The notes beneath the pieces were generated by a model, which was not told the DNA's origin, made no database searches, and was given only the letters and a program-made list of their open reading frames with translations. A program made the translations under genes and the position numbers. A DNA stretch of 64,000 bases from Clostridiales bacterium (GTDB lineage: Bacteria; Bacillota; Clostridia; TANB77; CAG-508): the NCBI GenBank assembly GCA_019419955.1, contig JAHZIB010000001.1, positions 29,971-93,970 of the forward strand, in the 5' to 3' direction. Positions 10,250 to 31,911 of this stretch are shown here, piece after piece (positions within the stretch are counted from its first letter, which is position 1; each line of letters opens with the position of its first letter).

Positions 10250-10693
10250 TTAAAATTTTTTCGTTTCAAAATTTATACTATTAAAAAGATATAGTGCAAC
10301 TTTATTTTGTTCTGTCGAGTCCATTTCCATAATTTTGCTTGATACAAATATTATATAAGGATAGTTTGCAAAATTAATAGTAGTAGTTCTGTATTCACTA
10401 TTTATTTCTTTTAGTAGGTTATCAAAATATTTATACATTTCTTTTTTATCGTATTCTAAATTGGTATGGCTATAATTATCACACATACAAATTGCTAGTC
10501 TTAATTTATTTTCTAAATCCATATCTTTTATCATATCTATTACATAATTTACTTTTTCAGCATTCATAACTTTTTTATTCCTTTCCATTTTTATTTTTCG
10601 GGGGTATGGGGTGCAAATCCCATATTTGAGTTTGTGCGGGAGTACAAATTCATTGCTTGCTAGGACATAAAATTTGTATTTTTCAAAATTCAC
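10250..10693 (-). CDS. Hypothetical protein (island). Real start may be the internal Met near 10588
   Basis: ORF only. Upstream part overlaps a GC-rich palindromic stretch. Confidence 0.4.
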   Translation of the reverse strand: MNFEKYKFYVLASNEFVLPHKLKYGICTPYPRKIKMERNKKVMNAEKVNYVIDMIKDMDLENKLRLAICMCDNYSHTNLEYDKKEMYKYFDNLLKEINSEYRTTTINFANYPYIIFVSSKIMEMDSTEQNKVALYLFNSINFETKKF

Positions 10694-11118
10694 TATTTTT
10701 TTATCTGTGTATTTTTTAATAAATTTTCTTTATTTTTTTGTATTAAATCTACGCAGTCTATTATCATTTCATCTTCAATAATAGGATAATTTACAACTCC
10801 TTTTGTATAAAAATTTTCTTCTAATAGTTGTAGATATTCATTCATTTCTTGTGTAGAATATTCTTTATTTTCAATTTTTGAATGATAAAATATATAATAA
10901 TCTTCTTTTATTTTTTCTAACTCCTGTTTAGTAATTGGCTCTTTATAAATAAATCCGATGTTATTATTTTGTAAAATATCATTCAAATATTTTATATATT
11001 CTTTACTGCTTTTAGAGATAAATTCTTCTGTAAATCTTATATCTTTTATTTCAATATTGTATTTTTCATCTCTTGAAATTTCTATGAATTCCAGTAAATA
11101 AATGTATATGTTTTCCAT
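10693..11118 (-). CDS. Hypothetical protein (island), 141 aa
   Basis: ORF only. ATGA start/stop overlap with the downstream ORF. Overlaps the 3' end of the recombinase ORF. Confidence 0.4.
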   Translation of the reverse strand: MENIYIYLLEFIEISRDEKYNIEIKDIRFTEEFISKSSKEYIKYLNDILQNNNIGFIYKEPITKQELEKIKEDYYIFYHSKIENKEYSTQEMNEYLQLLEENFYTKGVVNYPIIEDEMIIDCVDLIQKNKENLLKNTQIKK

Positions 11119-12527: not shown

Positions 12528-12601
<74 letters not shown>

Positions 12602-12680
12602 ATTCTTCAATAATAAGTATAGCATTATTTTTTTATATAGTAAAGAGAAAAAAACAACTTACAGACCTTATAGTTCGTAA

Positions 12681-12766
<86 letters not shown>

Positions 12767-12900
12767 ATTTCATTTTCAGAACAGTTATTATTATAAACTT
12801 TTTAAAAGCTCTTGTCAATACTTTTTAAAAAATTTTATAAATTTTTTCTTAATACTTGCATTAGATGATATTTTGTGCTAATATAATATAGTAATTTCAT

Positions 12901-12976
12901 AGGGGTATAGTGTCAATGGTTAGCATAATGGTCTCCAAAACCACAGGTGAGGGTTCGAATCCTTCTACCCCTGCCA
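12901..12976 (+). tRNA. tRNA-Trp(CCA)
   Basis: AGGGGTA..TACCCCT acceptor stem, anticodon loop CTCCAAA. Near-identical in architecture to B. subtilis tRNA-Trp. Ends in GCCA. Confidence 0.9.
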
Positions 12977-13073
12977 AATACATTATGCACAATCATTGTA
13001 TTGTGTATTTTATTTTGCCAAAACATATATAGCAACTATAAAATTAAAAATATTTGATGAAAAGGGTATTCAC

Positions 13074-13544
13074 ATGAGTGAAAAACAAAAAAAAATAATA
13101 AATAAAATAAAAAACAATAAATTAGTAAATAAGTTTCTAACAAAAGAAATAATTTTATATGTTATTTTCGGAGTATTAACTACATTAATAAACATAGGCT
13201 CCTTCTATATTATGACAACATATTTCAATATTGAAGAAAACTTTGCAAATAATACTGCAATTATATTTGCTGTTTTATTTGCATATGTTACAAATAAAGA
13301 CTTAGTATTTCACTCTCAAGCTAAAGGATTTGGAGAAAAATTTATTGAGTTTTGTAAATTCATCTTAGGTCGACTTGTTACAATGTTTATTGAGTCTGTT
13401 GGAGGTTCTTTATTATTTAAGTATGCACCTTTTACGCCTATTGTGAGCAAATGCATTATAACAGTATTTGTTATAATTTTAAATTTTTTAATTAGCAAAT
13501 TTTTTACCTTTAGGAGTTCTCCTAAGAGTGAAGAAAAAAAATAA
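13074..13544 (+). CDS. GtrA family membrane protein
   Basis: Four TM helices, GtrA-like pattern. The longer ORF from 12996 would overlap the tRNA flank, so start is set at the second Met (MSEKQKK). Confidence 0.7.
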   Translation: MSEKQKKIINKIKNNKLVNKFLTKEIILYVIFGVLTTLINIGSFYIMTTYFNIEENFANNTAIIFAVLFAYVTNKDLVFHSQAKGFGEKFIEFCKFILGRLVTMFIESVGGSLLFKYAPFTPIVSKCIITVFVIILNFLISKFFTFRSSPKSEEKK

Positions 13545-13575: not shown

Positions 13576-14172
13576 ATGTCTAATAGTTTTTCTTTGTCCT
13601 TTAAAGGTTTAATTATAATTATCATATTCTTGATTTTATTTATTTGTATATTTTTTATTCCTACTAATCCAGATTGGTCCTATTCTTCTGTATCTAATGA
13701 AAATTTAATACTTGATATTAGCTCTTCTGGTTACGTCTGGCCTGCTCCAGGTTATACAAGAATCAATTCTTATTTTGGATACAGAACTTCTCCTACTGCT
13801 GGTGCTTCTTCATATCATTCTGGGCTCGACATAGGTGCTCCAGAAGGAAGCAAACTTGTTGCTGTTACATCTGGCAAAATTACATTTGCACAATTTCTTG
13901 GTGGAGGTGGTTATACTATAACTCTTACCTCTGGAAATATAAAGTTCACTTATTGCCATGTTTCACCTTATTATATTGTTAAAGTTGGGGACTATGTTAT
14001 TCAAGGACAATTGATTGGATATGTAGGGCCTAAAAATGTCTATGGGGTAAAGGGAAATCAATACAAAGATGAAAATGGAAATCCTACAAACGGAGCTACT
14101 ACTGGTCCACATTTACACTTTGGTCTAAGAATCAATGGAGAATATGCTGACCCCTTAACACTTTTTAATTGA
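13576..14172 (+). CDS. M23 family metallopeptidase (LytM-like) with N-terminal TM/signal segment
   Basis: HSGLDIGAP and GPHLHFGLR (HxxxD and HxH motifs). Confidence 0.85.
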   Translation: MSNSFSLSFKGLIIIIIFLILFICIFFIPTNPDWSYSSVSNENLILDISSSGYVWPAPGYTRINSYFGYRTSPTAGASSYHSGLDIGAPEGSKLVAVTSGKITFAQFLGGGGYTITLTSGNIKFTYCHVSPYYIVKVGDYVIQGQLIGYVGPKNVYGVKGNQYKDENGNPTNGATTGPHLHFGLRINGEYADPLTLFN

Positions 14173-14398
14173 TTTTTATTGATGTACCCTGGTTACTAAA
14201 TAATGGCTTAATATGATTTATAGCTGAAACCCTTGTGTTTCTAACTAGAGTATATTTTTTTAAAAGGTATACTTCTTTAAACGCACTTGCAATAAAATTG
14301 CTCGTTTGGATGCTGCGCGGTTCTGCAAAATGTCTCTAAATATACACATATCTTGCTTGGTTGCATTTGAGTTGACTAAAAGTTACTATACAATAAAA

Positions 14399-14446
14399 AA
14401 GAGGGTGAAAATTAAAATTAATCATTTAATTTCACTCTCCCCACCA
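14399..14446. terminator. Hairpin between convergent M23 peptidase and Zn-ribbon genes
   Basis: agagggtgaaa / tttcactctcc stem (one mismatch), flanked by A and T runs. Confidence 0.5.
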
Positions 14447-14456
14447 AATTTTATTT

Positions 14457-15035
14457 CTACATATCTTCATCTTCGTTTTTATTGTCTTCACTTATTTGAG
14501 CATTATTTATATCTCTATCCTTTTTGTTTTGACTTCTGTTTTGTGATTTTTTATTTTTAGAAATATCTTCATTATAGATGCCTTCATCTTCCGCAACCTG
14601 CTCGCTATGGCAGTGTCCACAATCTCCCATACATTCGTATTCATCATCAGAATTCCAATCTAATTCTATAATATTATTACATTTCGGGCATTTAATTTCG
14701 TCTTTTTCTTCATCTTCAATGTCAGTGGTAAATTCATAATTGCAATAAGGACAAATTATTTCAAATTCATAATTATCATCTTGTTCATAAATATCGCCCT
14801 CTATCTCATCTACTAATGATTGTACCTCTTCAATTCTATGATTAATCGCCAATTGCCTGTCTTCTACTTCTTTAATTCTTTCATCCATTAATGCCGTTAA
14901 TCTATCAACAATATCCATGAAAATAAATGTTAATTCCGTAATCTTCTCTTTTGAATACGTCAAATCATATGGTTCTTTAATATTATTTTCTAAATCTTCC
15001 AATATTTTTTTATATTTACCTTTTATATCAGACAT
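14457..15035 (-). CDS. Acidic zinc-ribbon protein (three CxxC pairs), hypothetical
   Basis: CPYCNYEF, CPKCNNII, CMGDCGHCH. Highly acidic, K/D/E-rich C-terminus. Confidence 0.6.
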   Translation of the reverse strand: MSDIKGKYKKILEDLENNIKEPYDLTYSKEKITELTFIFMDIVDRLTALMDERIKEVEDRQLAINHRIEEVQSLVDEIEGDIYEQDDNYEFEIICPYCNYEFTTDIEDEEKDEIKCPKCNNIIELDWNSDDEYECMGDCGHCHSEQVAEDEGIYNEDISKNKKSQNRSQNKKDRDINNAQISEDNKNEDEDM

Positions 15036-26280: not shown

Positions 26281-26365
26281 ACCAGATTAGTTTTCCTTGG
26301 GCTATGCATATTCGCAACGAAAAATGCACATGCTTGCTTTCGCTAATTCGCAATTTTCTTCTTTT
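26281..26365. repeat. Intergenic repeat family, copy C
   Basis: Shares a core (ttccttRggctRtgcatattcgc..cgaaaaatgcacatg..cttgctttcgctaa..caattttctt) with 59516-59615 and 59660-59770. Confidence 0.7.
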
Positions 26366-28701
26366 CACATATCATATTCATAAATTACAATTTCCTTTGT
26401 ACCAAAGTCAAACTCATCAATCTTATAATTAATATAAAAACTTTCTTCTTTGCTAAATTTTAAATTTAGCTTATCAGCATCAATTAAAACTTCTGTGGAC
26501 AAATTCATTCCTAAAGGTAATGTTTTATTAAAATTATCATAAAATATAATATTCGAATAAAACACAAGTGGTGCATTTTCTTTTATATTAATTTTGCAAA
26601 GAGATATTTTGCTCTTTTTGCTTAAAAGTTCGTGCTCAAATGCATCCCTAGGATTAATACTTAGTATATTAAGTCCTTTAAGAGACTTTTTTGCTCCCAT
26701 ACAATAAGCAGATATGTTATAAGGAGACTGAATCTTATTAAGTGCTTCCCTAATTAATAATAAGTAACTCTCTAAATTCTCTGTATAAACCTTCAAGTCT
26801 GTATCTAGATTGATATTCAAAACCTTGTATTTATCCTTTTCGATTTCTCTATGTTTTACATTATTTATTGATTTAATTTTTGTCTTGTCATCTATTAACC
26901 CACCAAATATATTAAAATCCTTACTATTAATTATTTCTATATTGTTTTCGTATTCCCTTTTTAAATTCGTTAAATCTCTGCTTAATGGATTAACCTTTTT
27001 AGTTTTTGCTTTCTCCTTCTTTACTTCTTCCTCGTCCTTTTCTATATAAATCTCAACAGCGTTGTCTTTATCCTTTTCTAATTCCTTAAATGAGTCTGGA
27101 ACTTGTTTTATCGCAAATATAGCATCAGTTTCATTTTTTGATAGTTTTCTTCTCTGCACTTCATCTACAATCTGACCTAAGTCTTCTAAATCTGTTTCAT
27201 AGTCAAAATATTTTGCCATTCTGGTCTTTTCTTTTTTTTCTCTTTCCTCGCCTTCATTCAAGTTTTGAACTTCATCCTTACTTGTAAATTTCCAAAATTC
27301 AAAAATACTTTTTTTATGTTTATCAATTTCATTAATGTATAATTCTGCATTATCAATTTTCTTAGACAAAATATCTTTTTTCGTTTCGATTGCACTTATA
27401 TCTAGATTTAGATTAGTATTCTCTTTCACGACCTCTTCAAGCTTGGTACAAATACTTATTAAATCTTCAATTGTATACTGCTGTTTCAAAATATATAATT
27501 CTTCTAATGCTTCGTCCTTTTTTTCTTCTTCTCGTTTTTCTTTAATTATTGGCTTTTTTTCTTGCCTTACTTCTTTTTTCTTCTTAAAGAAGTATTTCAC
27601 TTTTCCAAAAAAAGTCTTTTTACATTCCAAAAAAGTAGCAATTTGCCTTTGCTTTAATAAGTACTCTTCTGTTAAGTCTTCGATTATCCCCTTAAATTTA
27701 TTTAATTTTCTATTTAATTCTTTTTGCTCTTTTTCTTCATTTTTCAATCTATCAATCTTATCTAAGTATTCAACCCTTATAAATTCCGAAAGAGAATTAT
27801 ACTCTAGCTTTACATTATCTTGCCAAAACTCTAACTGACTATCCTCTCCTATTTTCGTTTCAAATCTATATTCCTCTTTAGCACCTGTTGCTAATATAAA
27901 CATCGCTTTAAGTAGTTTATAAAACTCTCTAGCCTCTTTTTTACTATATAAACTTATTGCATATGTACTTTTAATCTTATCATATACGCTAGTTATCCCA
28001 ACAATCTTTATAAACATATTTTCTTCTTTATCATAAACCTCATAAACATTTGGCCATTCCTTTGTAAAAAACCATAAATAGTTTTCTATGTCCTCAATTT
28101 CTGATTTAGTCAAAAATGACCCTGAATACTCAAGATGGCTTACTGGTGCAAAAATAAACCTAGGTTTTCTTGCTCTCGAATTTGCAATTTTTTCTTTTAA
28201 CAAATATAGTAAGGCATTATTGTCCTGTTCTTTTACAGGCACTAGCATAAAATATTTCTTTGCATAATCAGAATAGTATATCTGCCATATATAATTATTA
28301 GGATATTTTACCTCATAAGGTATTTTATCATTCAATCCCTCTTGCTCTTTTGTTATCTCTTCTACTCTTTTTATATCTAAATTTGCAATTATCTTCATGA
28401 AATTTGCAAAATTTTCTATATTTTCTTCTTTTTTTGAATTTAAGCATGCACATAGCGGAGTAGATAATTTATATTTTTCTTTCAAGTCCGTTAACCTATC
28501 TGTAGGTGTAATTAGCAATTCTATGTTTTTAATATTTATATATTTATATACTTTATATATTGTATCATCATATGCTTTAGAAGGTCTAAAATTCAAATTT
28601 TCACATTCTTTGAGAAATGTAGGCAATTTATTCAAATTTAGACCAATATATTCTAAGTTTTTTTCAATTGTTTTTTCACTTTCTTTAGTTGCTTTAGGCA
28701 T
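26365..28701 (-). CDS. Hypothetical 778-aa protein: N-terminal globular region, long K/E-rich coiled coil, C-terminal globular region
   Basis: No recognisable catalytic motifs or TM segments. About 250 central residues are heptad-like and K/E-rich. Confidence 0.7.
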   Translation of the reverse strand: MPKATKESEKTIEKNLEYIGLNLNKLPTFLKECENLNFRPSKAYDDTIYKVYKYINIKNIELLITPTDRLTDLKEKYKLSTPLCACLNSKKEENIENFANFMKIIANLDIKRVEEITKEQEGLNDKIPYEVKYPNNYIWQIYYSDYAKKYFMLVPVKEQDNNALLYLLKEKIANSRARKPRFIFAPVSHLEYSGSFLTKSEIEDIENYLWFFTKEWPNVYEVYDKEENMFIKIVGITSVYDKIKSTYAISLYSKKEAREFYKLLKAMFILATGAKEEYRFETKIGEDSQLEFWQDNVKLEYNSLSEFIRVEYLDKIDRLKNEEKEQKELNRKLNKFKGIIEDLTEEYLLKQRQIATFLECKKTFFGKVKYFFKKKKEVRQEKKPIIKEKREEEKKDEALEELYILKQQYTIEDLISICTKLEEVVKENTNLNLDISAIETKKDILSKKIDNAELYINEIDKHKKSIFEFWKFTSKDEVQNLNEGEEREKKEKTRMAKYFDYETDLEDLGQIVDEVQRRKLSKNETDAIFAIKQVPDSFKELEKDKDNAVEIYIEKDEEEVKKEKAKTKKVNPLSRDLTNLKREYENNIEIINSKDFNIFGGLIDDKTKIKSINNVKHREIEKDKYKVLNINLDTDLKVYTENLESYLLLIREALNKIQSPYNISAYCMGAKKSLKGLNILSINPRDAFEHELLSKKSKISLCKINIKENAPLVFYSNIIFYDNFNKTLPLGMNLSTEVLIDADKLNLKFSKEESFYINYKIDEFDFGTKEIVIYEYDM

Positions 28702-28910
28702 ACTTTCTCAGTCTCTCCTTTCATGTTTTTTTGGGTTGAATCAAGAAGCATCTTTTTGCTTCAACGATTTGTATTATATCACAAAAAAATGTTTTATTCT
28801 ATATGTTTATATAATATTTATAAAGTTAAAGAAATTTCTATTTTCTTTAACTAAATGATATGTGTCACACGTGGAGCTACTTATAGCTAATAATCTGCGT
28901 ATTGTAATCC

Positions 28911-28946
28911 AAAACAATCGCCCAGAGAAATATCTCTAGGCGATTG
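28911..28946 (-). terminator. Intrinsic terminator of the RelA/SpoT-domain gene
   Basis: GC-rich hairpin caatcgcc-[agag..ctct]-ggcgattg followed by TTTT on the minus strand. Confidence 0.6.
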
Positions 28947-28953
28947 CATGCAA

Positions 28954-29826
28954 TTATAAGAGGCCAAACAGGTCAACAGGCTTGCACAAGCCAATACGGT
29001 CGTAAATCGTACCATCAGGCAAAAGTGCAAAACCAGGCATATTGACCTTAGAAAAGTCAATGTTAATGCCAGTCTCCTTATAGCGATCAAACTTGTATGC
29101 CGTATGAGATGCGCTCCCATATTCAGCTACAATGTCCATCCCTGTTGTTCGTACTTGCAGTTCGAAAATTAAGCCATGCGGTTTCTTAAAAATTACATGC
29201 AAACTCTGATAACCATTGTCCTTAGGATTAACAACATAGTCCTTAACATTGTTCTCAAACACTGGATTAATTAATCTCTCCTTAGGAATTACAATCCATT
29301 CTTCTTTAAATTTCTCGGGATCGAATCCTGTATCAAACACAGGCTCTGCTTCAAGTGGAATGCATCTGCTCTTCGCTACAAAAAACTCAATAATAGAGTT
29401 CATCATCTCGTAACACAGTTTCACCGTAAATGGCGAATCTTTTTGCTCGGTACAAAGTATTACTCTGAAACCAAACACATCCAACAGTTTGTCAAGCGGA
29501 TATCTCGTCTGGAAAAATAGACGAATCTTCTTGTTAATTCCTACGAAATCTTTCTGTCTGCCTTTTAAGACAACGTCTACACCATAATGCTCTGCCCAGG
29601 TGTGCAGTTGCTGCCTAAGAATATGAAACTCATTTTTGAGTTCGCTCATCTTCTCAGGTGCCAGCATGTTGTGCAGTTCTTCCAACTTATTCGCATATAC
29701 CGCGTTATAAATAGAAGAGTCATCAGTTCGCAACGCCTCAATGTACCGCAACCAGACTTCCTCTGTGGAACTGCTTGCGTAAATTGACGGTTCTAGTGGT
29801 GTGAACCGCATTTCCGTACTCAACAT
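28954..29826 (-). CDS. RelA/SpoT nucleotidyltransferase-domain protein (small alarmone synthetase / toxSAS-like), horizontally acquired
   Basis: Synthetase motifs DVFGFRVIL, NGYQSLHVIF, ELQVRTTGMDIVAEYG-SASHTAYK. About 40% GC with CGG/GCG/CCG/CTG codons against about 27% GC flanks. AGGGAGG RBS. Confidence 0.85.
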   Translation of the reverse strand: MLSTEMRFTPLEPSIYASSSTEEVWLRYIEALRTDDSSIYNAVYANKLEELHNMLAPEKMSELKNEFHILRQQLHTWAEHYGVDVVLKGRQKDFVGINKKIRLFFQTRYPLDKLLDVFGFRVILCTEQKDSPFTVKLCYEMMNSIIEFFVAKSRCIPLEAEPVFDTGFDPEKFKEEWIVIPKERLINPVFENNVKDYVVNPKDNGYQSLHVIFKKPHGLIFELQVRTTGMDIVAEYGSASHTAYKFDRYKETGINIDFSKVNMPGFALLPDGTIYDRIGLCKPVDLFGLL

Positions 29827-29869
29827 TGATTAAACCTCCCTTGTTTTTTTCAACAGGTTGCATATGCTT

Positions 29870-29898
29870 ATTATACCATATTTATGTAACTTATTCAA
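29870..29898 (-). promoter_or_regulatory. Sigma-A-type promoter for the RelA/SpoT-domain gene
   Basis: On the minus strand: TTGAAT, 17-nt spacer, TGgTATAAT (extended -10), 35 nt upstream of the RBS. Confidence 0.55.
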
Positions 29899-29979
29899 GG
29901 CTTGTACAATATTTCGCTTAGTTGCAAGATAATGGTTTTATAATATACTTGTCCTGCAACATCTATTACTATATCTATT

Positions 29980-31911
29980 CTATTTTGCAAATGTCTCAAT
30001 TTCTTCAGCAATCTTTGCAATAAACTCGTCTATATCCATTGCACCAATATCTCCGTCTTTTCTTGAACGTACACCTACTGTACCCGCTTCTTTCTCCTTA
30101 TCACCTAGTACTAACATGTAAGGTATCTTCTGAAGCTGTGCCTCTCTTATCTTATATCCTATTTTTTCGTTTCTGTCATCTAGTTCTACTCTCACGCCTT
30201 TATTTTCCAACTTTTCTTTTACTTCTTTTGCATAATTTATATGAGAATCAGCTATTGGAAGAAGTTTAACCTGTACTGGTGAAAGCCACATTGGGAAAGC
30301 TCCTTTTGTTTCTTCTATTAAAAACGATATGAACCTATCAAAAGTACCAAGAATAGCTCTATGAATAACAATTGGTCTATGGGCTTTTCCATCTTCTCCT
30401 ATATATTCAAGCTCAAATCTTTGCGGTAATAAAAAGTCTAATTGACATGTTGAAATAGTTATATCATGACCAATCGCAGTTTTAATTTGTACATCTAGCT
30501 TAGGTCCATAGAAAGCCGCTTCTCCTTCTGCTTCATAAAAGTTTAAGTTCAACTCTTTTAATATTTGTCTTAGTTGGCTTTCAGCATTTTCCCACATTTC
30601 GTCATCGTCAAAATACTTTTCTTTATTGTTCTTATCTCTTAAAGATAATCTAAATGTATAATCTTCAAATCCGAAGTCTTTATAAACTGCAAGAATTAAG
30701 TTGACAACTTCTCCAAAAACCGGCTTTATTTGCTCAGGTGTAACAAATATATGTGCGTCATTTTGGCACATTTCTCTTACTCTCTCTAATCCACAAACGC
30801 TTCCACTTGCTTCATATCTAAAGTCATGTGCAAGTTCTCCAATTTTTATAGGCAAATCTCTATAAGAATGTAATGTATTTTTATATATCAGCATATGATG
30901 AGGACAATTCATTGGTCTTAATACCATTTCTTCTGTATCCATTTTCATTACAGGAAACATATCTTCTTTATAATGCTCCCAATGTCCGCTCGTTTTATAC
31001 AATGCGACATTAGCAAGTGATGGAGTATAAACATGTTTATATCCTAACTTTATTTCTTTATTCATAATATACTGTTCTAACAATCTTCTTACTGTCGCTC
31101 CATTTGGTAAATACATTGGAAGTCCTGCTCCTACTAGCTCATGTGTCATAAATAAATTTAATTGTTTACCTATTTTTCTGTGATCTCTTTGCTTTGCATC
31201 TTCTAATAATTGTATATATTCTTCAAGTTGACTTGCTTTCGGAAAAGCAATTCCATAAAATCTTTGAAGCATTTTGTTATGCTCGTCACCTCTCCAGTAA
31301 GCACCTGATGATGATAAAATTTTAACAACTTTTAACTTTCCTGTGCTCTTTAAATGAGGGCCAGCACATAAGTCTGTAAACTCCCCTTGTTTATAAAAAG
31401 ATATTTCTTCTCCATCTGGCAGCTCCTCTATCAACTCTACTTTATAATCTTCTCCTTGTGCTTTCATAAATTCAATAGCTTCATTTCTTGGCAGTGTATA
31501 CCTTTCAATTGGTAAGTCTTCCTTAATTATTTTTTTCATTTCTGTTTCTATTTTTTCAAAATCATCTGAAGATATATTTTCTTCAACATCAAAATCATAA
31601 TAAAATCCATTTTCTATCGCAGGACCTATTGCAAGTTTAATCTCTTTTCCATAAATCCTTTTTATGGCTTGTGCCATAACATGTGAACATGTATGCCAAT
31701 ATGCTTTTTTACCTTCCTCACTGTTTTCAAAAGTAAGTATCTCAACTTTAGCATCATTTTCTATATTATACCTTAAGTCTCTAACTTCGCCATTTATCTT
31801 TCCACATGTAGCATTTCTTGCCAATCCTTCACTTATCTCTTCTGCTAATTCTAGTACACTAATTCCCTTTCTAACTTCTTTTATAGAGCCATCTTTTAAT
31901 GTAATTTTCAT
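29980..31911 (-). CDS. thrS: Threonine--tRNA ligase
   Basis: 643 aa. TGS and editing domains, class II core (HRAILGS..FPMWLSP), anticodon-binding domain. Confidence 0.95.
   Translation of the reverse strand: MKITLKDGSIKEVRKGISVLELAEEISEGLARNATCGKINGEVRDLRYNIENDAKVEILTFENSEEGKKAYWHTCSHVMAQAIKRIYGKEIKLAIGPAIENGFYYDFDVEENISSDDFEKIETEMKKIIKEDLPIERYTLPRNEAIEFMKAQGEDYKVELIEELPDGEEISFYKQGEFTDLCAGPHLKSTGKLKVVKILSSSGAYWRGDEHNKMLQRFYGIAFPKASQLEEYIQLLEDAKQRDHRKIGKQLNLFMTHELVGAGLPMYLPNGATVRRLLEQYIMNKEIKLGYKHVYTPSLANVALYKTSGHWEHYKEDMFPVMKMDTEEMVLRPMNCPHHMLIYKNTLHSYRDLPIKIGELAHDFRYEASGSVCGLERVREMCQNDAHIFVTPEQIKPVFGEVVNLILAVYKDFGFEDYTFRLSLRDKNNKEKYFDDDEMWENAESQLRQILKELNLNFYEAEGEAAFYGPKLDVQIKTAIGHDITISTCQLDFLLPQRFELEYIGEDGKAHRPIVIHRAILGTFDRFISFLIEETKGAFPMWLSPVQVKLLPIADSHINYAKEVKEKLENKGVRVELDDRNEKIGYKIREAQLQKIPYMLVLGDKEKEAGTVGVRSRKDGDIGAMDIDEFIAKIAEEIETFAK

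Follow-up and report, generated by a model that had tools for sequence, protein, structure and literature searches.

A resident small alarmone synthetase gene with a family-wide codon anomaly, possibly restrained by its own mRNA

In a 64,000-nucleotide stretch of clostridial genomic DNA (hereafter, the window; GenBank assembly GCA_019419955.1, contig JAHZIB010000001.1, positions 29,971 to 93,970), a gene for a RelA/SpoT-type alarmone synthetase departs strongly in GC content and codon usage from everything around it, raising the question of whether it is a recently inserted foreign toxin gene, as the initial annotation proposed, or a resident whose unusual composition belongs to the gene family itself. 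The open reading frame is intact and encodes a protein of 290 amino acids containing the core motifs DVFGFRVIL (with D116), GYQSLH (205-210), ELQVRT (222-227), AEYG (234-237), and SHTAYK (240-245). The profile search that had been suggested assigned the protein to the RSH synthetase superfamily (PF04607, E = 1.6e-20, 73.9 bits against the Pfam cut-off of 27). PF04607 is its sole Pfam domain, and with neither an HD hydrolase nor TGS/ACT domains, it is a small alarmone synthetase (SAS). The initial description of a stand-alone synthetase with all core motifs is thus borne out, and the active site is intact.

Residues R90, K92, K100, D116, R121, K195, K202, Y206, Q207, S208, L209, H210, E222, Q224, R226, and H241 are invariant among 37 family members. 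Sixteen invariant columns align with catalytic residues of RelSeq, the counterparts being R241, K243, K251, D264, R269, K297, K304, Y308, H312, E323, Q325, and R327. The equivalents of RelSeq D264 and E323 are D116 and E222, and those of the substrate contacts are R90, K92, K100, K195, K202, Y206, and H210. The AF2 model of the monomer (pLDDT 91) is predicted to adopt the nucleotidyltransferase-like SYNTH fold. The gene is under strong purifying selection (dN/dS about 0.05), and the C-terminal tail is conserved across alleles rather than hypervariable. The identity of the gene and the integrity of its catalytic residues are established. Judging from these residues, the SAS would be catalytically competent and would make (p)ppGpp by transferring pyrophosphate from ATP to the 3'-OH of GDP or GTP.

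Full-length matches at E<=1e-30 form 186 clusters at 50% identity. They are best read as an undescribed subfamily whose proteins, of ~290 aa, come from uncultured gut Firmicutes that are AT-rich and spore-forming and have genomes of ~1.6 Mb. A separate scan of genome contigs with RelA/SpoT motifs returned mostly generic matches; among the matches listed, only one, from an "uncultured Clostridium sp." (L024), was family-like.

Table 1. Features of the SAS gene, its transcript, and its product (window positions, or residues where so given)
Feature	Position	Strand	Details
Recombination cassette	28700..30040	.	thrS 3' end, SAS promoter, CDS, terminator, upstream region of the 778-aa gene
CDS, 290-aa SAS	28954..29826	-	ORF, Pfam, family alignment, AF2 model
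N-terminal helical extension of SAS	residues 1-81	-	
SYNTH core of SAS	residues about 84-248	-	~40-aa insertion at 153-190
C-terminal extension of SAS, conserved	residues 250-290	-	
Sigma-70-type promoter	29870..29898	-	-35 TTGAAT 29898-29893; 17-nt spacer; TG-extended -10 TATAAT 29875-29870
5' UTR (about 37 nt)	29827..29863	-	5'-terminal AUGCAA 29863-29858; Shine-Dalgarno AGGGAGG 29841-29835
Anti-Shine-Dalgarno segment GGCCUCUU	28958..28965	-	last codons (Gly-Leu-Leu); predicted SD partner in the same mRNA
UUGCAU just past the SAS stop codon	28948..28953	-	complementary to the predicted 5'-terminal AUGCAA
Intrinsic terminator	28914..28947	-	15-bp stem, 4-nt loop, U-tract
CGG codon 7 (Arg)	29806..29808	-	0 CGG in 16,047 codons of other long window ORFs
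CGG codon 27 (Arg)	29746..29748	-	kept in the 96%-identical L001 allele

The expression signals recognized initially are all present (Table 1). The promoter matches the consensus at 10 of 12 positions, plus the TG, transcription is predicted to start near 29863, and the strong Shine-Dalgarno (SD) sequence AGGGAGG lies 8 nt upstream of the ATG. Extended -10 promoters of equivalent type precede the orthologues in three related loci (L016, L013, and L009), equivalent terminators follow those in L016 and L013, and the terminator stem shows compensatory changes (alignment columns 925-956). In four loci, other clades included, promoter and terminator enclose the SAS gene alone, making it monocistronic. 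An Rfam search in and around the gene gave no match, and the opposite strand contains only weak promoter-like matches, with no antisense RNA evident. Likewise, no small adjacent ORF with conserved presence and no conserved partner gene were seen in the window and related loci, in agreement with the initial impression that no antitoxin ORF adjoins the gene.

The SAS gene sits between thrS (29980-31911) and a gene for a 778-aa protein (26365-28701). It is followed downstream by the 778-aa homologue and recN in the window and in L009, L001, L016, L104, L108, L106, L110, and L128, so that the same site is occupied in eight related lineages with thrS genes 64-98% identical. The exact SAS protein, in the same gene order, was found in about 130 sample blocks. 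The SAS neighbors differ between clades, with three genomic contexts in all, and genes for Fic, HipA_C, PBECR, and PDDEXK_2 proteins are found at neighboring sites in relatives. A vacant site between thrS and the 778-aa gene had been proposed as a sign of insertion; one such lineage exists (L111/L112, where a 70-nt spacer separates thrS from a 786-aa gene), against the eight that are occupied. Orthologues at the same locus in related genomes had been named beforehand as the observation that would speak against recent insertion, and they are what we found. The SAS is thus best read as a long-standing resident of the thrS-[SAS]-778aa-recN neighborhood and not as a recent import. The 778-aa protein, initially suggested as a possible neutralizer, was rejected as a partner because each gene occurs without the other: the homologue is present without the SAS in L111, lies three genes away from it in L110, and is not adjacent in L013 and L020.

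Residency of the locus is accompanied by turnover of its alleles. Between the window and L009, nucleotide identity is 98-100% outside a 1.3-kb cassette and 65-80%, with indels, inside it; dS is 0.06-0.13 outside and saturated inside. Within one species, strains have had the whole cassette replaced as a unit. In the comparison with L001, the relation is reversed: the SAS proteins are 96% identical with dS of 0.49, and the flanks have dS from 1.4 to saturated. Different old SAS alleles are exchanged among strains and among species, the cassette being replaced by homologous recombination.

The compositional anomaly is pronounced. The SAS gene has a GC content of 0.409 and GC3 of 0.436, compared to 0.27-0.33 and 0.19-0.23, respectively, for the flanking genes; the ~40% GC and outlier status given initially hold, whereas the 25-28% quoted for the flanks was slightly low (thrS, 32.7%). 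The suggested composition and codon-index checks place the gene at a GC3 z-score of +6.8 relative to the 40 other window ORFs of >=200 aa (background 0.20, next highest 0.278) and at a CAI-like index of 0.43 against a background minimum of 0.587. A codon count bore out the use of CGG, GCG, CCG, and CTG. The anomaly is family-wide: GC3 of the SAS exceeds that of its neighbors in 21/21 loci, and every allele examined shares the deviant codon usage (30-96% aa identity, three genomic contexts), not only the lineage that would have been the recipient. CGG, present in all 19 gene copies examined, occurs at 9.3 per 1000 SAS codons vs 0.07 in the background (54,375 codons). It accounts for 37% of CGN codons, compared to 14% for G-ending codons in the other four-fold boxes (p = 1e-8), and so is over-represented above the gene's own G3 level; even in the L128 genome, with GC3 of 0.09, the SAS retains one CGG. 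Every allele has at least one CGG within its first 105 codons, where it makes up 24% of Arg codons vs 9% later (p = 0.002). CGG positions are mostly unconserved between alleles, although all four alleles with Arg at the alignment column of codon 7 use it. CUC, the codon employed in the window anti-SD segment, amounts to 1% of background Leu codons. Reassignment of CGG was rejected as an explanation, considering that in some family members the codon stands at the positions of the invariant arginines R90, R121, and R226. A search of 26 related loci for tRNA genes yielded none.

Distant alleles share about as many identical codons as independence would predict (4931 observed vs 4765 expected), indicating that synonymous sites are saturated. 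Because high GC3 and CGG persist throughout the family despite this saturation, composition is not evidence of foreignness here, and the initial reading of atypical composition as a mark of recent acquisition does not stand. The amino acid composition of 194/194 family proteins is of the AT-genome type, with no GC-rich donor pool visible, and the islands' other accessory genes are native in GC3.

The SAS mRNA has an excess of predicted RNA structure. Against dinucleotide shuffles, the window coding sequence folds with z = -4.8 and 15 other alleles with z from -2.1 to -13.5, compared to -0.7 to +1.0 for seven neighboring segments. Under synonymous-codon permutation, no permutation reached the native energy in any of the nine alleles (z = -2.4 to -8.1); controls gave -1.4 to +1.0, and 22 neighbor ORFs in other loci averaged -1.1 but extend to -3.4, overlapping the weakest SAS values. 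The arrangement of codons, not their usage alone, is thus non-random with respect to folding. The excess remains when the base-pair span is restricted to 60 nt. Since distant alleles have few hairpin positions in common (pairing-profile correlation 0.07, null 0.00), a single conserved fold is unsupported, and the case is one of general structuredness.

Part of the predicted pairing involves the ribosome-binding site. The mean probability that the SD is paired is 0.80 in the SAS family vs 0.48 in 19 window genes. For the window allele, it is 0.89, with codons 288-289 as the predicted partner; the last codons of the ORF are the predicted partner in 10 of 15 alleles, the other five using other partners or none. 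In minimum-free-energy and alignment folds, the transcript's 3' end is the predicted partner of both the 5'-terminal AUGCAA and the SD; a consensus helix (alignment columns 30-36:908-913) is present in four alleles, and the UUGCAU/AUGCAA complementarity is kept in the window, L001, and L106 and lost in L009. Complementarity between the SD and the last codons extends to 16 nt in L020 and 19 nt in L114, with the same terminal codons in L116. The predicted SD/3'-end duplex of the window allele (-11.3 kcal/mol) is more stable than that of any of 34 control genes (mean -4.9, minimum -9.3). Duplex energies are more favorable in the family than in these controls (Mann-Whitney p = 1.8e-5; this and the other p-values are optimistic, as the alleles are not statistically independent) and lie beyond all 34 in 10 of 17 alleles, although for several alleles, that of the window among them (z = -0.8), the duplex is no better than with shuffles of the same 3' segment. 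Occlusion of the SD by 5' hairpins during transcription was rejected, as nascent 5' fragments mask it no more than those of controls do (p = 0.07-0.3), and co-transcriptional translation may escape the fold-back.

Taken together, these observations lead us to hold, with moderate confidence and on the strength of predicted structures, that the gene is a resident SAS of an undescribed subfamily restrained by its own mRNA. That every lineage has kept a GC-rich, rare-codon coding sequence would be explained most economically if synonymous sites were selected for extensive base pairing of the mRNA. The mRNA would form a chain of local hairpins and, in most alleles, would also fold back so that its final codons cover the SD. 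Such a transcript would be expected to be stable but to yield little protein, even with a consensus promoter and a strong ribosome-binding site, so that the mRNA, in place of a protein antitoxin, would limit the level of an enzyme with the potential to arrest growth. Besides the product, it is the translational repression, the reason for it, and a factor relieving it that we infer.

The alternative that survives best, although we consider it rather unlikely, is that the protein is a toxic SAS engaged in conflict (phage defense or addiction) as a single gene, held in check by mRNA folding and rare codons and/or by CapRel-like autoinhibition through its N- and C-terminal segments, and perhaps targeting ATP or tRNA rather than GDP/GTP. 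Allele replacement, the one empty site, and the conflict-type genes near relatives' loci would fit a defense or toxin role better than housekeeping: ancient alleles are swapped within a species, near-identical ones are common to different species, the gene is polymorphic for presence, and Fic, HipA_C, PBECR, and PDDEXK_2 genes occupy adjoining sites. Masking of an SD by a distal anti-SD is, furthermore, a hallmark of type I toxin mRNAs (PMC6733600), and PADLOC reported a weak PDC-S33 match, which covers the generic motif only. Against this stand the absence of sequence-level relation to validated toxSAS families, a G-loop (KDYxxxPKxNGYQSLH) nearly identical to that of long Rel enzymes, the strong purifying selection, the conserved C-terminal tail, synteny stable over deep divergence, and the failure to detect an antisense RNA or antitoxin. 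The phage association suggested initially found no backing either, as no relatives were found in the viral contigs of IMG/VR and PHROG matches were weak.

A further elaboration, which we regard as unlikely, is a new kind of self-restrained alarmone-synthetase toxin. Following family-wide synonymous recoding, its own mRNA, through hairpins, a masked SD, and barely decoded CGG-type codons, would act as the antitoxin; conflict-driven selection would keep and exchange old alleles; and only a specific insult would set translation free. Examples of such an insult would be RNA damage or unfolding, an altered tRNA pool, or a tRNA supplied by a phage.

Distinctly improbable, in our estimate, is that the rare codons are themselves the regulatory device and structure is secondary, with CGG (and CGN, CUG, and CUC) gating translation via a scarce dedicated tRNA or acting as a simple brake. 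The occurrence of CGG in all 19 copies and its near absence elsewhere, its concentration in the first 105 codons, and its excess over the gene's own G3 level favor such gating, and low-GC Firmicutes typically read CGG with one dedicated tRNA or leave it unassigned or reassigned (PMC8629427). The CGG positions are mostly not conserved, however, and CGN codons add G-C pairs; codon 7 of the window allele lies in a predicted stem, so the enrichment may be a by-product of structure. Finally, a recent foreign gene whose GC content and codons mirror a donor of about 40-45% GC is largely refuted and very improbable: in composition the gene is the most extreme outlier in the window, the site is empty in one relative, and the window allele, nearer to that of another species than its flanks are, may be imported, but the site is filled in eight lineages, the anomaly recurs in all 21 loci and three contexts, GC3 is high despite saturation at synonymous sites, none of the family proteins has the amino acid composition typical of GC-rich genomes, accessory genes of the same islands keep native GC3, and codon arrangement is non-random with respect to folding.

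The SAS gene is a clean counter-example to the use of GC or codon deviation as a proxy for horizontal transfer, being a case in which the deviation is an inherited and apparently selected property of a gene family. It suggests that a bacterial enzyme gene has been synonymously recoded over its entire length to favor mRNA structure, which would be a form of control documented so far mainly for tiny type I toxins. The uncharacterized subfamily defined here, comprising at least 186 clusters at 50% identity from abundant uncultured human-gut Firmicutes, may reveal how small-genome anaerobes run, or weaponize, alarmone signaling. With CGG otherwise unused in these genomes, the gene is also a natural probe of how a near-unassigned codon is handled.

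Among known systems, the SAS resembles Rel, RelP, and RelQ in sequence far more than any validated toxSAS: searched against PDB chains, the family profile matched Rel (2e-22), RelP (3e-14), RelQ (1e-8), and, without significance, FaRel2 (0.16), whereas CapRel and Tas1 were not found. It differs from the SYNTH domains of long Rel enzymes (B. subtilis Rel 6YXA/8ACU, S. aureus Rel 7OIW, RelSeq 1VJ7) in lacking HD, TGS, and ACT domains, in an insertion of ~40 aa between the D116/R121 beta-strand and the G-loop, and in N- and C-terminal extensions unique to it; TIGR00691 scores it at 84.6 bits, against a cut-off of 499. The matches to RelP and RelQ (S. aureus RelP 6EWZ, B. subtilis RelP 6FGK, RelQ 5DEC) are weaker than those to long Rel, these proteins are shorter (~210 aa vs 290 aa), and the RelQ/RelP (SAS1/SAS2) equivalog NF053588 (GTPPhKinYjbM) scores the SAS at 29.2 bits against a cut-off of 320, placing it outside that group. 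We know of no report of recoded, highly structured relP or relQ mRNAs.

The toxSAS modules (FaRel, FaRel2, PhRel, PhRel2, and CapRel) are conserved two- or three-gene operons with an antitoxin gene (PMC7229694). The SAS has no significant sequence match to CapRel (7ZTB), FaRel2 (8PU1), or Tas1 (6OX6) (PMC7229694, PMC11782079), has no bicistronic partner in the four loci with a monocistronic unit, has no relatives among the viral contigs of IMG/VR, and lacks a C-terminal domain the size of the pseudo-zinc-finger antitoxin/sensor domain of CapRel (about 100 aa); the initially suggested membership in the toxSAS, CapRel, FaRel, or PhRel subfamilies is thus not upheld.

In the type I toxin mRNAs hok and aapA3, a long-distance 5'-3' interaction hides the SD (PMC6733600, PMC9841398). 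The SAS mRNA has a strong SD, is likewise predicted to be highly structured, and in its full-length form would be closed on itself, the 5' end and SD pairing with a distal 3' anti-SD. Whereas type I systems yield small membrane peptides, however, the SAS gene encodes a 290-aa enzyme; an antisense RNA was not identified for the SAS, metastable 5' hairpins are unsupported, and because the anti-SD is part of the terminal codons, trimming of the 3' end to activate the mRNA would destroy the stop codon.

Rare-codon gating is exemplified by the bldA tRNA-Leu(UUA) of Streptomyces, where a codon nearly purged from the genome persists in regulatory genes. The SAS likewise keeps CGG, almost purged from its genomes, but as the mirror image of the bldA case: its GC-rich codons stand in an AT-rich genome, and the whole gene, rather than single codons, is recoded.

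The 290-aa ORF contains every (p)ppGpp-synthetase motif attributed to it in the initial annotation, and the Pfam RelA_SpoT profile scores 73.9 bits against it (cut-off 27). The claimed promoter, ribosome-binding site (RBS), and terminator were likewise verified, and the observation itself is confirmed. The profile aligns in one piece over the C-terminal half only, because an insertion of ~40 residues between the DVFGFRVIL strand (D116) and the G-loop KDYVVNPKDNGYQSLH (residues 195-210) splits the core. A word-indexed search retrieved ~60 clusters of related proteins (285-300 aa, 30-96% identity), of metagenomic origin throughout, with a single one labeled 'Clostridia bacterium', and an exhaustive profile search matched 186 clusters (50% identity) over the full length at E ≤ 1e-30. 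A 37-member alignment has 20 invariant columns, among them R90, K92, K100, D116, R121, K195, K202, Y206, Q207, S208, L209, H210, E222, Q224, R226, and H241, with the RelSeq (1VJ7) counterparts R241, K243, K251, D264, R269, K297, K304, Y308, H312, E323, Q325, and R327 in HMMER alignments. Judged by this correspondence, the invariant residues make up the full synthetase active site, including both residues classically mutated to abolish synthesis, and conservation indicates that the product is most likely (p)ppGpp. The common core accounts for about half of the protein. No NCBIfam model reached its cut-off, and PADLOC and PHROG matches covered the generic motif alone. The intact active site, the relatives, and the failure of any NCBIfam model to reach the protein identify it, on sequence grounds, as a real, intact small alarmone synthetase (SAS) of an undescribed subfamily. 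In likeness to known synthetases, RelP comes after the closest, and RelQ after RelP.

The gene is the compositional outlier it was said to be: its GC content is 0.409 and its third-position GC (GC3) 0.436, compared with a GC3 of 0.19-0.23 in the flanking genes. Relative to the 40 other window ORFs of at least 200 aa, its GC3 is 6.8 sd higher than the mean, and its CAI-like codon adaptation index (0.43) falls below the background minimum (0.587). As a sign of foreignness, this composition fails, because it is a family trait: SAS GC3 exceeds that of the other long ORFs, mostly every one of them, in 21/21 loci drawn from three genomic contexts, with amino acid identities of 30-96%. These genes are all poor in third-position A and markedly rich in CGN arginine codons. 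Distant alleles share identical codons at identical amino acids at the level of independence (4931 observed, 4765 expected), and the anomaly is not inertia. All 194 full-length family proteins have the amino acid composition of AT-rich genomes, so there is no visible GC-rich donor pool; further accessory genes of these islands show native GC3.

Folding predictions tie this trait to an unusually structured mRNA. The predicted transcript with its terminator is far more stable when folded than its dinucleotide shuffles (z = -7.1), as is the coding sequence alone (z = -4.8, versus -0.7 to +1.0 for seven equal-length segments of neighboring genes), and 15/15 other alleles are also negative (z from -2.1 to -13.5). 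Under permutation of synonymous codons, which alters neither the protein nor the codon usage of the gene, the native sequence folded better than every permutation in nine of nine alleles (z = -2.4 to -8.1), compared with z = -1.4 to +1.0 for eight control segments and a mean of -1.1 (minimum -3.4) for 22 neighbor ORFs of six other loci. The signal survives a 60-nt limit on pair span, which attributes most of it to local hairpins. Between distant alleles, conservation of hairpin positions is weak (r = 0.07 versus 0.00), and selection seems to act on structuredness in general, not on a single fold. Helices of this kind need G- or C-ending codons, and CGN instead of AGA. Selection on mRNA structure would account most economically for the 'foreign' composition.

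The Shine-Dalgarno (SD) sequence is probably masked in this mRNA. In full-length transcripts, its predicted mean pairing probability is 0.80 (15 alleles), compared with 0.48 for 19 other window genes. The predicted partner lies in the final six codons of the ORF itself in 10 of the 15 alleles, among them the 30%-identical allele L024 and others residing in different genomic contexts; the remaining five have other predicted partners or none. In L020 and L114, AAAGGAGGU is complementary over 16 and 19 nt to the terminal codons ...AAC UUC CUU UAA, which L116 also has. The terminal codons are CUC CUC in L001, L009, and L016 and CUC UUA in the window; CUC makes up 1% of background Leu codons. Pairing of the initiation region with the final 30 nt is predicted at -10.6 kcal/mol on average, versus -4.9 for 34 control genes (p = 1.8e-5), and is stronger than the strongest control in 10/17 alleles, although the duplex of the window allele does not outperform those formed when its 3' segment is shuffled (z = -0.8). 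In a four-allele RNAalifold consensus, the SD helix (columns 30-36:908-913) is kept in a nested 5'-3' panhandle, with double changes in 33/227 pairs, and in the window, the 5'-terminal AUGCAA is predicted to pair with UUGCAU right after the stop codon. Hiding of the SD by nascent 5' fragments was not above controls. The conserved protein motifs F-P-D-L (N-terminal) and D-P-F-x-L-L (C-terminal) are encoded, here and in orthologs, by pyrimidine-rich UUYCCU, CCNUUY, and CUCCUC strings; these are the predicted SD partners in different alleles, so RNA and protein constraints may be entangled. GC-rich synonymous codons would yield a heavily structured mRNA with a masked SD, and we consider it somewhat probable that the gene encodes an alarmone synthetase under tight post-transcriptional restraint.

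The window and the related locus L009 come from essentially one species (flanks 98-100% identical in nucleotides, neighbor proteins 93-99%, flank dS 0.06-0.13), but a sharply bounded block at ~28700-30040 is just 65-80% identical, with indels, and the SAS genes have saturated dS, their proteins being 80% identical. Against L001 the pattern is reversed, with flanks 85-87% identical (dS 1.4 to saturated) and SAS 96% (dN 0.023, dS 0.49); L016 and L104 repeat the L009 pattern (SAS 63%, flanks 86-93%). Old alleles have therefore been swapped at a fixed locus, each under strong purifying selection. This exchange, together with the Fic, PBECR, HipA_C, and PDDEXK_2 genes that relatives carry in nearby intergenic regions, lends some support to the accessory, conflict-like character initially proposed, and is what a toxic, conflict-type SAS with RNA-level self-control can claim. 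We regard this main rival as possible but rather unlikely; it differs from a restrained synthetase mainly in the purpose of the enzyme. In contrast to SAS, the conflict-type genes of loci L110 and L111 have native GC3.

The family-wide anomaly extends to CGG, which is practically unused outside SAS in the window (0/16,047 codons in the 40 background ORFs, where CGN makes up 8% of Arg codons) and occurs in 4/54,375 codons of the wider background, two of the four inside a spurious antisense ORF. Every SAS allele carries one to six; in L128, from a genome with GC3 = 0.09, the one CGN codon of SAS is CGG. In SAS genes, CGG accounts for 37% of CGN, versus 14% G-ending codons in other four-fold boxes (p = 1e-8), and is enriched over the first 105 codons (p = 0.002). 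Its presence at invariant arginine columns shows that it is decoded as Arg. In low-GC Firmicutes, CGG is nearly purged, and is either decoded by a dedicated tRNA or unassigned or reassigned (PMC8629427). Gating by rare codons as the primary device appears improbable.

The order thrS-SAS-(~778 aa)-recN is shared by the window and L009, L016, L104, L108, and L128; L001 has pfkB-SAS-780aa-recN, in L106 the large gene again follows SAS, and L110 has three additional genes between thrS-SAS and a 776-aa gene. Across these lineages, thrS is 64-98% identical. The window's exact SAS protein occurs with the same synteny in ~130 sample blocks, and in two further clades the gene sits in a different, likewise conserved housekeeping setting (Peptidase_U32 ... 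SAS, with a convergent O-methyltransferase gene). These neighborhoods argue against the recent insertion initially proposed. The corresponding empty site does exist, in L111/L112 (thrS ~88-91% identical to the window's group), where a 786-aa gene follows thrS; parsimony favors loss. The L111 spacer contains a promoter-like stretch with TATAAT and a GGAGG RBS, and no SAS remnant. A phage link is not borne out, with no relatives encoded in 2.9 million viral contigs. Plain recent horizontal acquisition, to which the empty site might point, is largely refuted and very improbable given the conserved synteny, the anomaly in all 21 loci and three contexts, and the AT-type protein composition. SAS is a long-term resident of its locus whose alleles are exchanged.

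The 778-aa protein, suggested as a neutralizer, had no match in Pfam, NCBIfam, PADLOC, or PHROG. Its family is very large (>5000 matches, the best 120 all at least 71% identical), its gene is invariably directly upstream of recN in this clade, and it appears to be a lineage-specific core protein without a known function. Each protein is found without the other, so it is not an obligate partner. In the window, L009, and L123-L127, recN and thyA are separated by a DnaB_C-like helicase gene; lysS directly follows recN in L016, L104, L110, L111, and L128, so the helicase may be a lineage-specific insertion. Window genes are nearly all on the minus strand, and a tRNA cluster marks one of the few strand/GC-skew change points. 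The split recN and thrS genes of two otherwise identical contigs are frameshifts or assembly errors.

Features of the SAS locus and of related loci
Feature	Position	Strand	Remark
SAS ORF, 290 aa	28954..29826	-	
Promoter TTGAAT-17-TG-TATAAT	upstream of SAS		signal scan
RBS AGGGAGG	8 nt 5' of SAS ATG		
Terminator, 15-bp	SAS		signal scan
Helical N-terminus	residues 1-81		SAS-specific, outside core
Insertion	residues 153-190		SAS-specific, outside core
C-terminal tail, ending DxFxLL			conserved; SAS-specific, outside core
778-aa protein	26365-28701	-	conserved family, no known domain
DnaB_C-like helicase, 690 aa	22141-24213	-	acidic low-complexity N-terminus; phrog_19 E=3e-24
Two tRNA-Gly(UCC), tRNA-Trp(CCA)	12528-12976	-, +	
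L111 spacer, 70 nt	7931-8000		thrS stop to 786-aa gene start
L111 Fic; PBECR2/3	10358-11038; 12877-13242		between 786-aa gene and recN; after recN
L110 PDDEXK_2, DUF4362, 434-aa ORF; HipA_C	3782-7778; 13820-14701		between SAS and 776-aa gene; after lysS
L126 recN, 282 + 250 aa	11601-13229		broken
L127 thrS, 177 + 482 aa	5660-7604		broken

No antisense RNA was found for SAS. In type I toxin mRNAs such as hok and aapA3, the SD is sequestered over a long distance (PMC6733600), and a similar arrangement is predicted for the SAS mRNA. Unlike in those systems, the SAS product is an enzyme, and the predicted anti-SD lies in the coding sequence.
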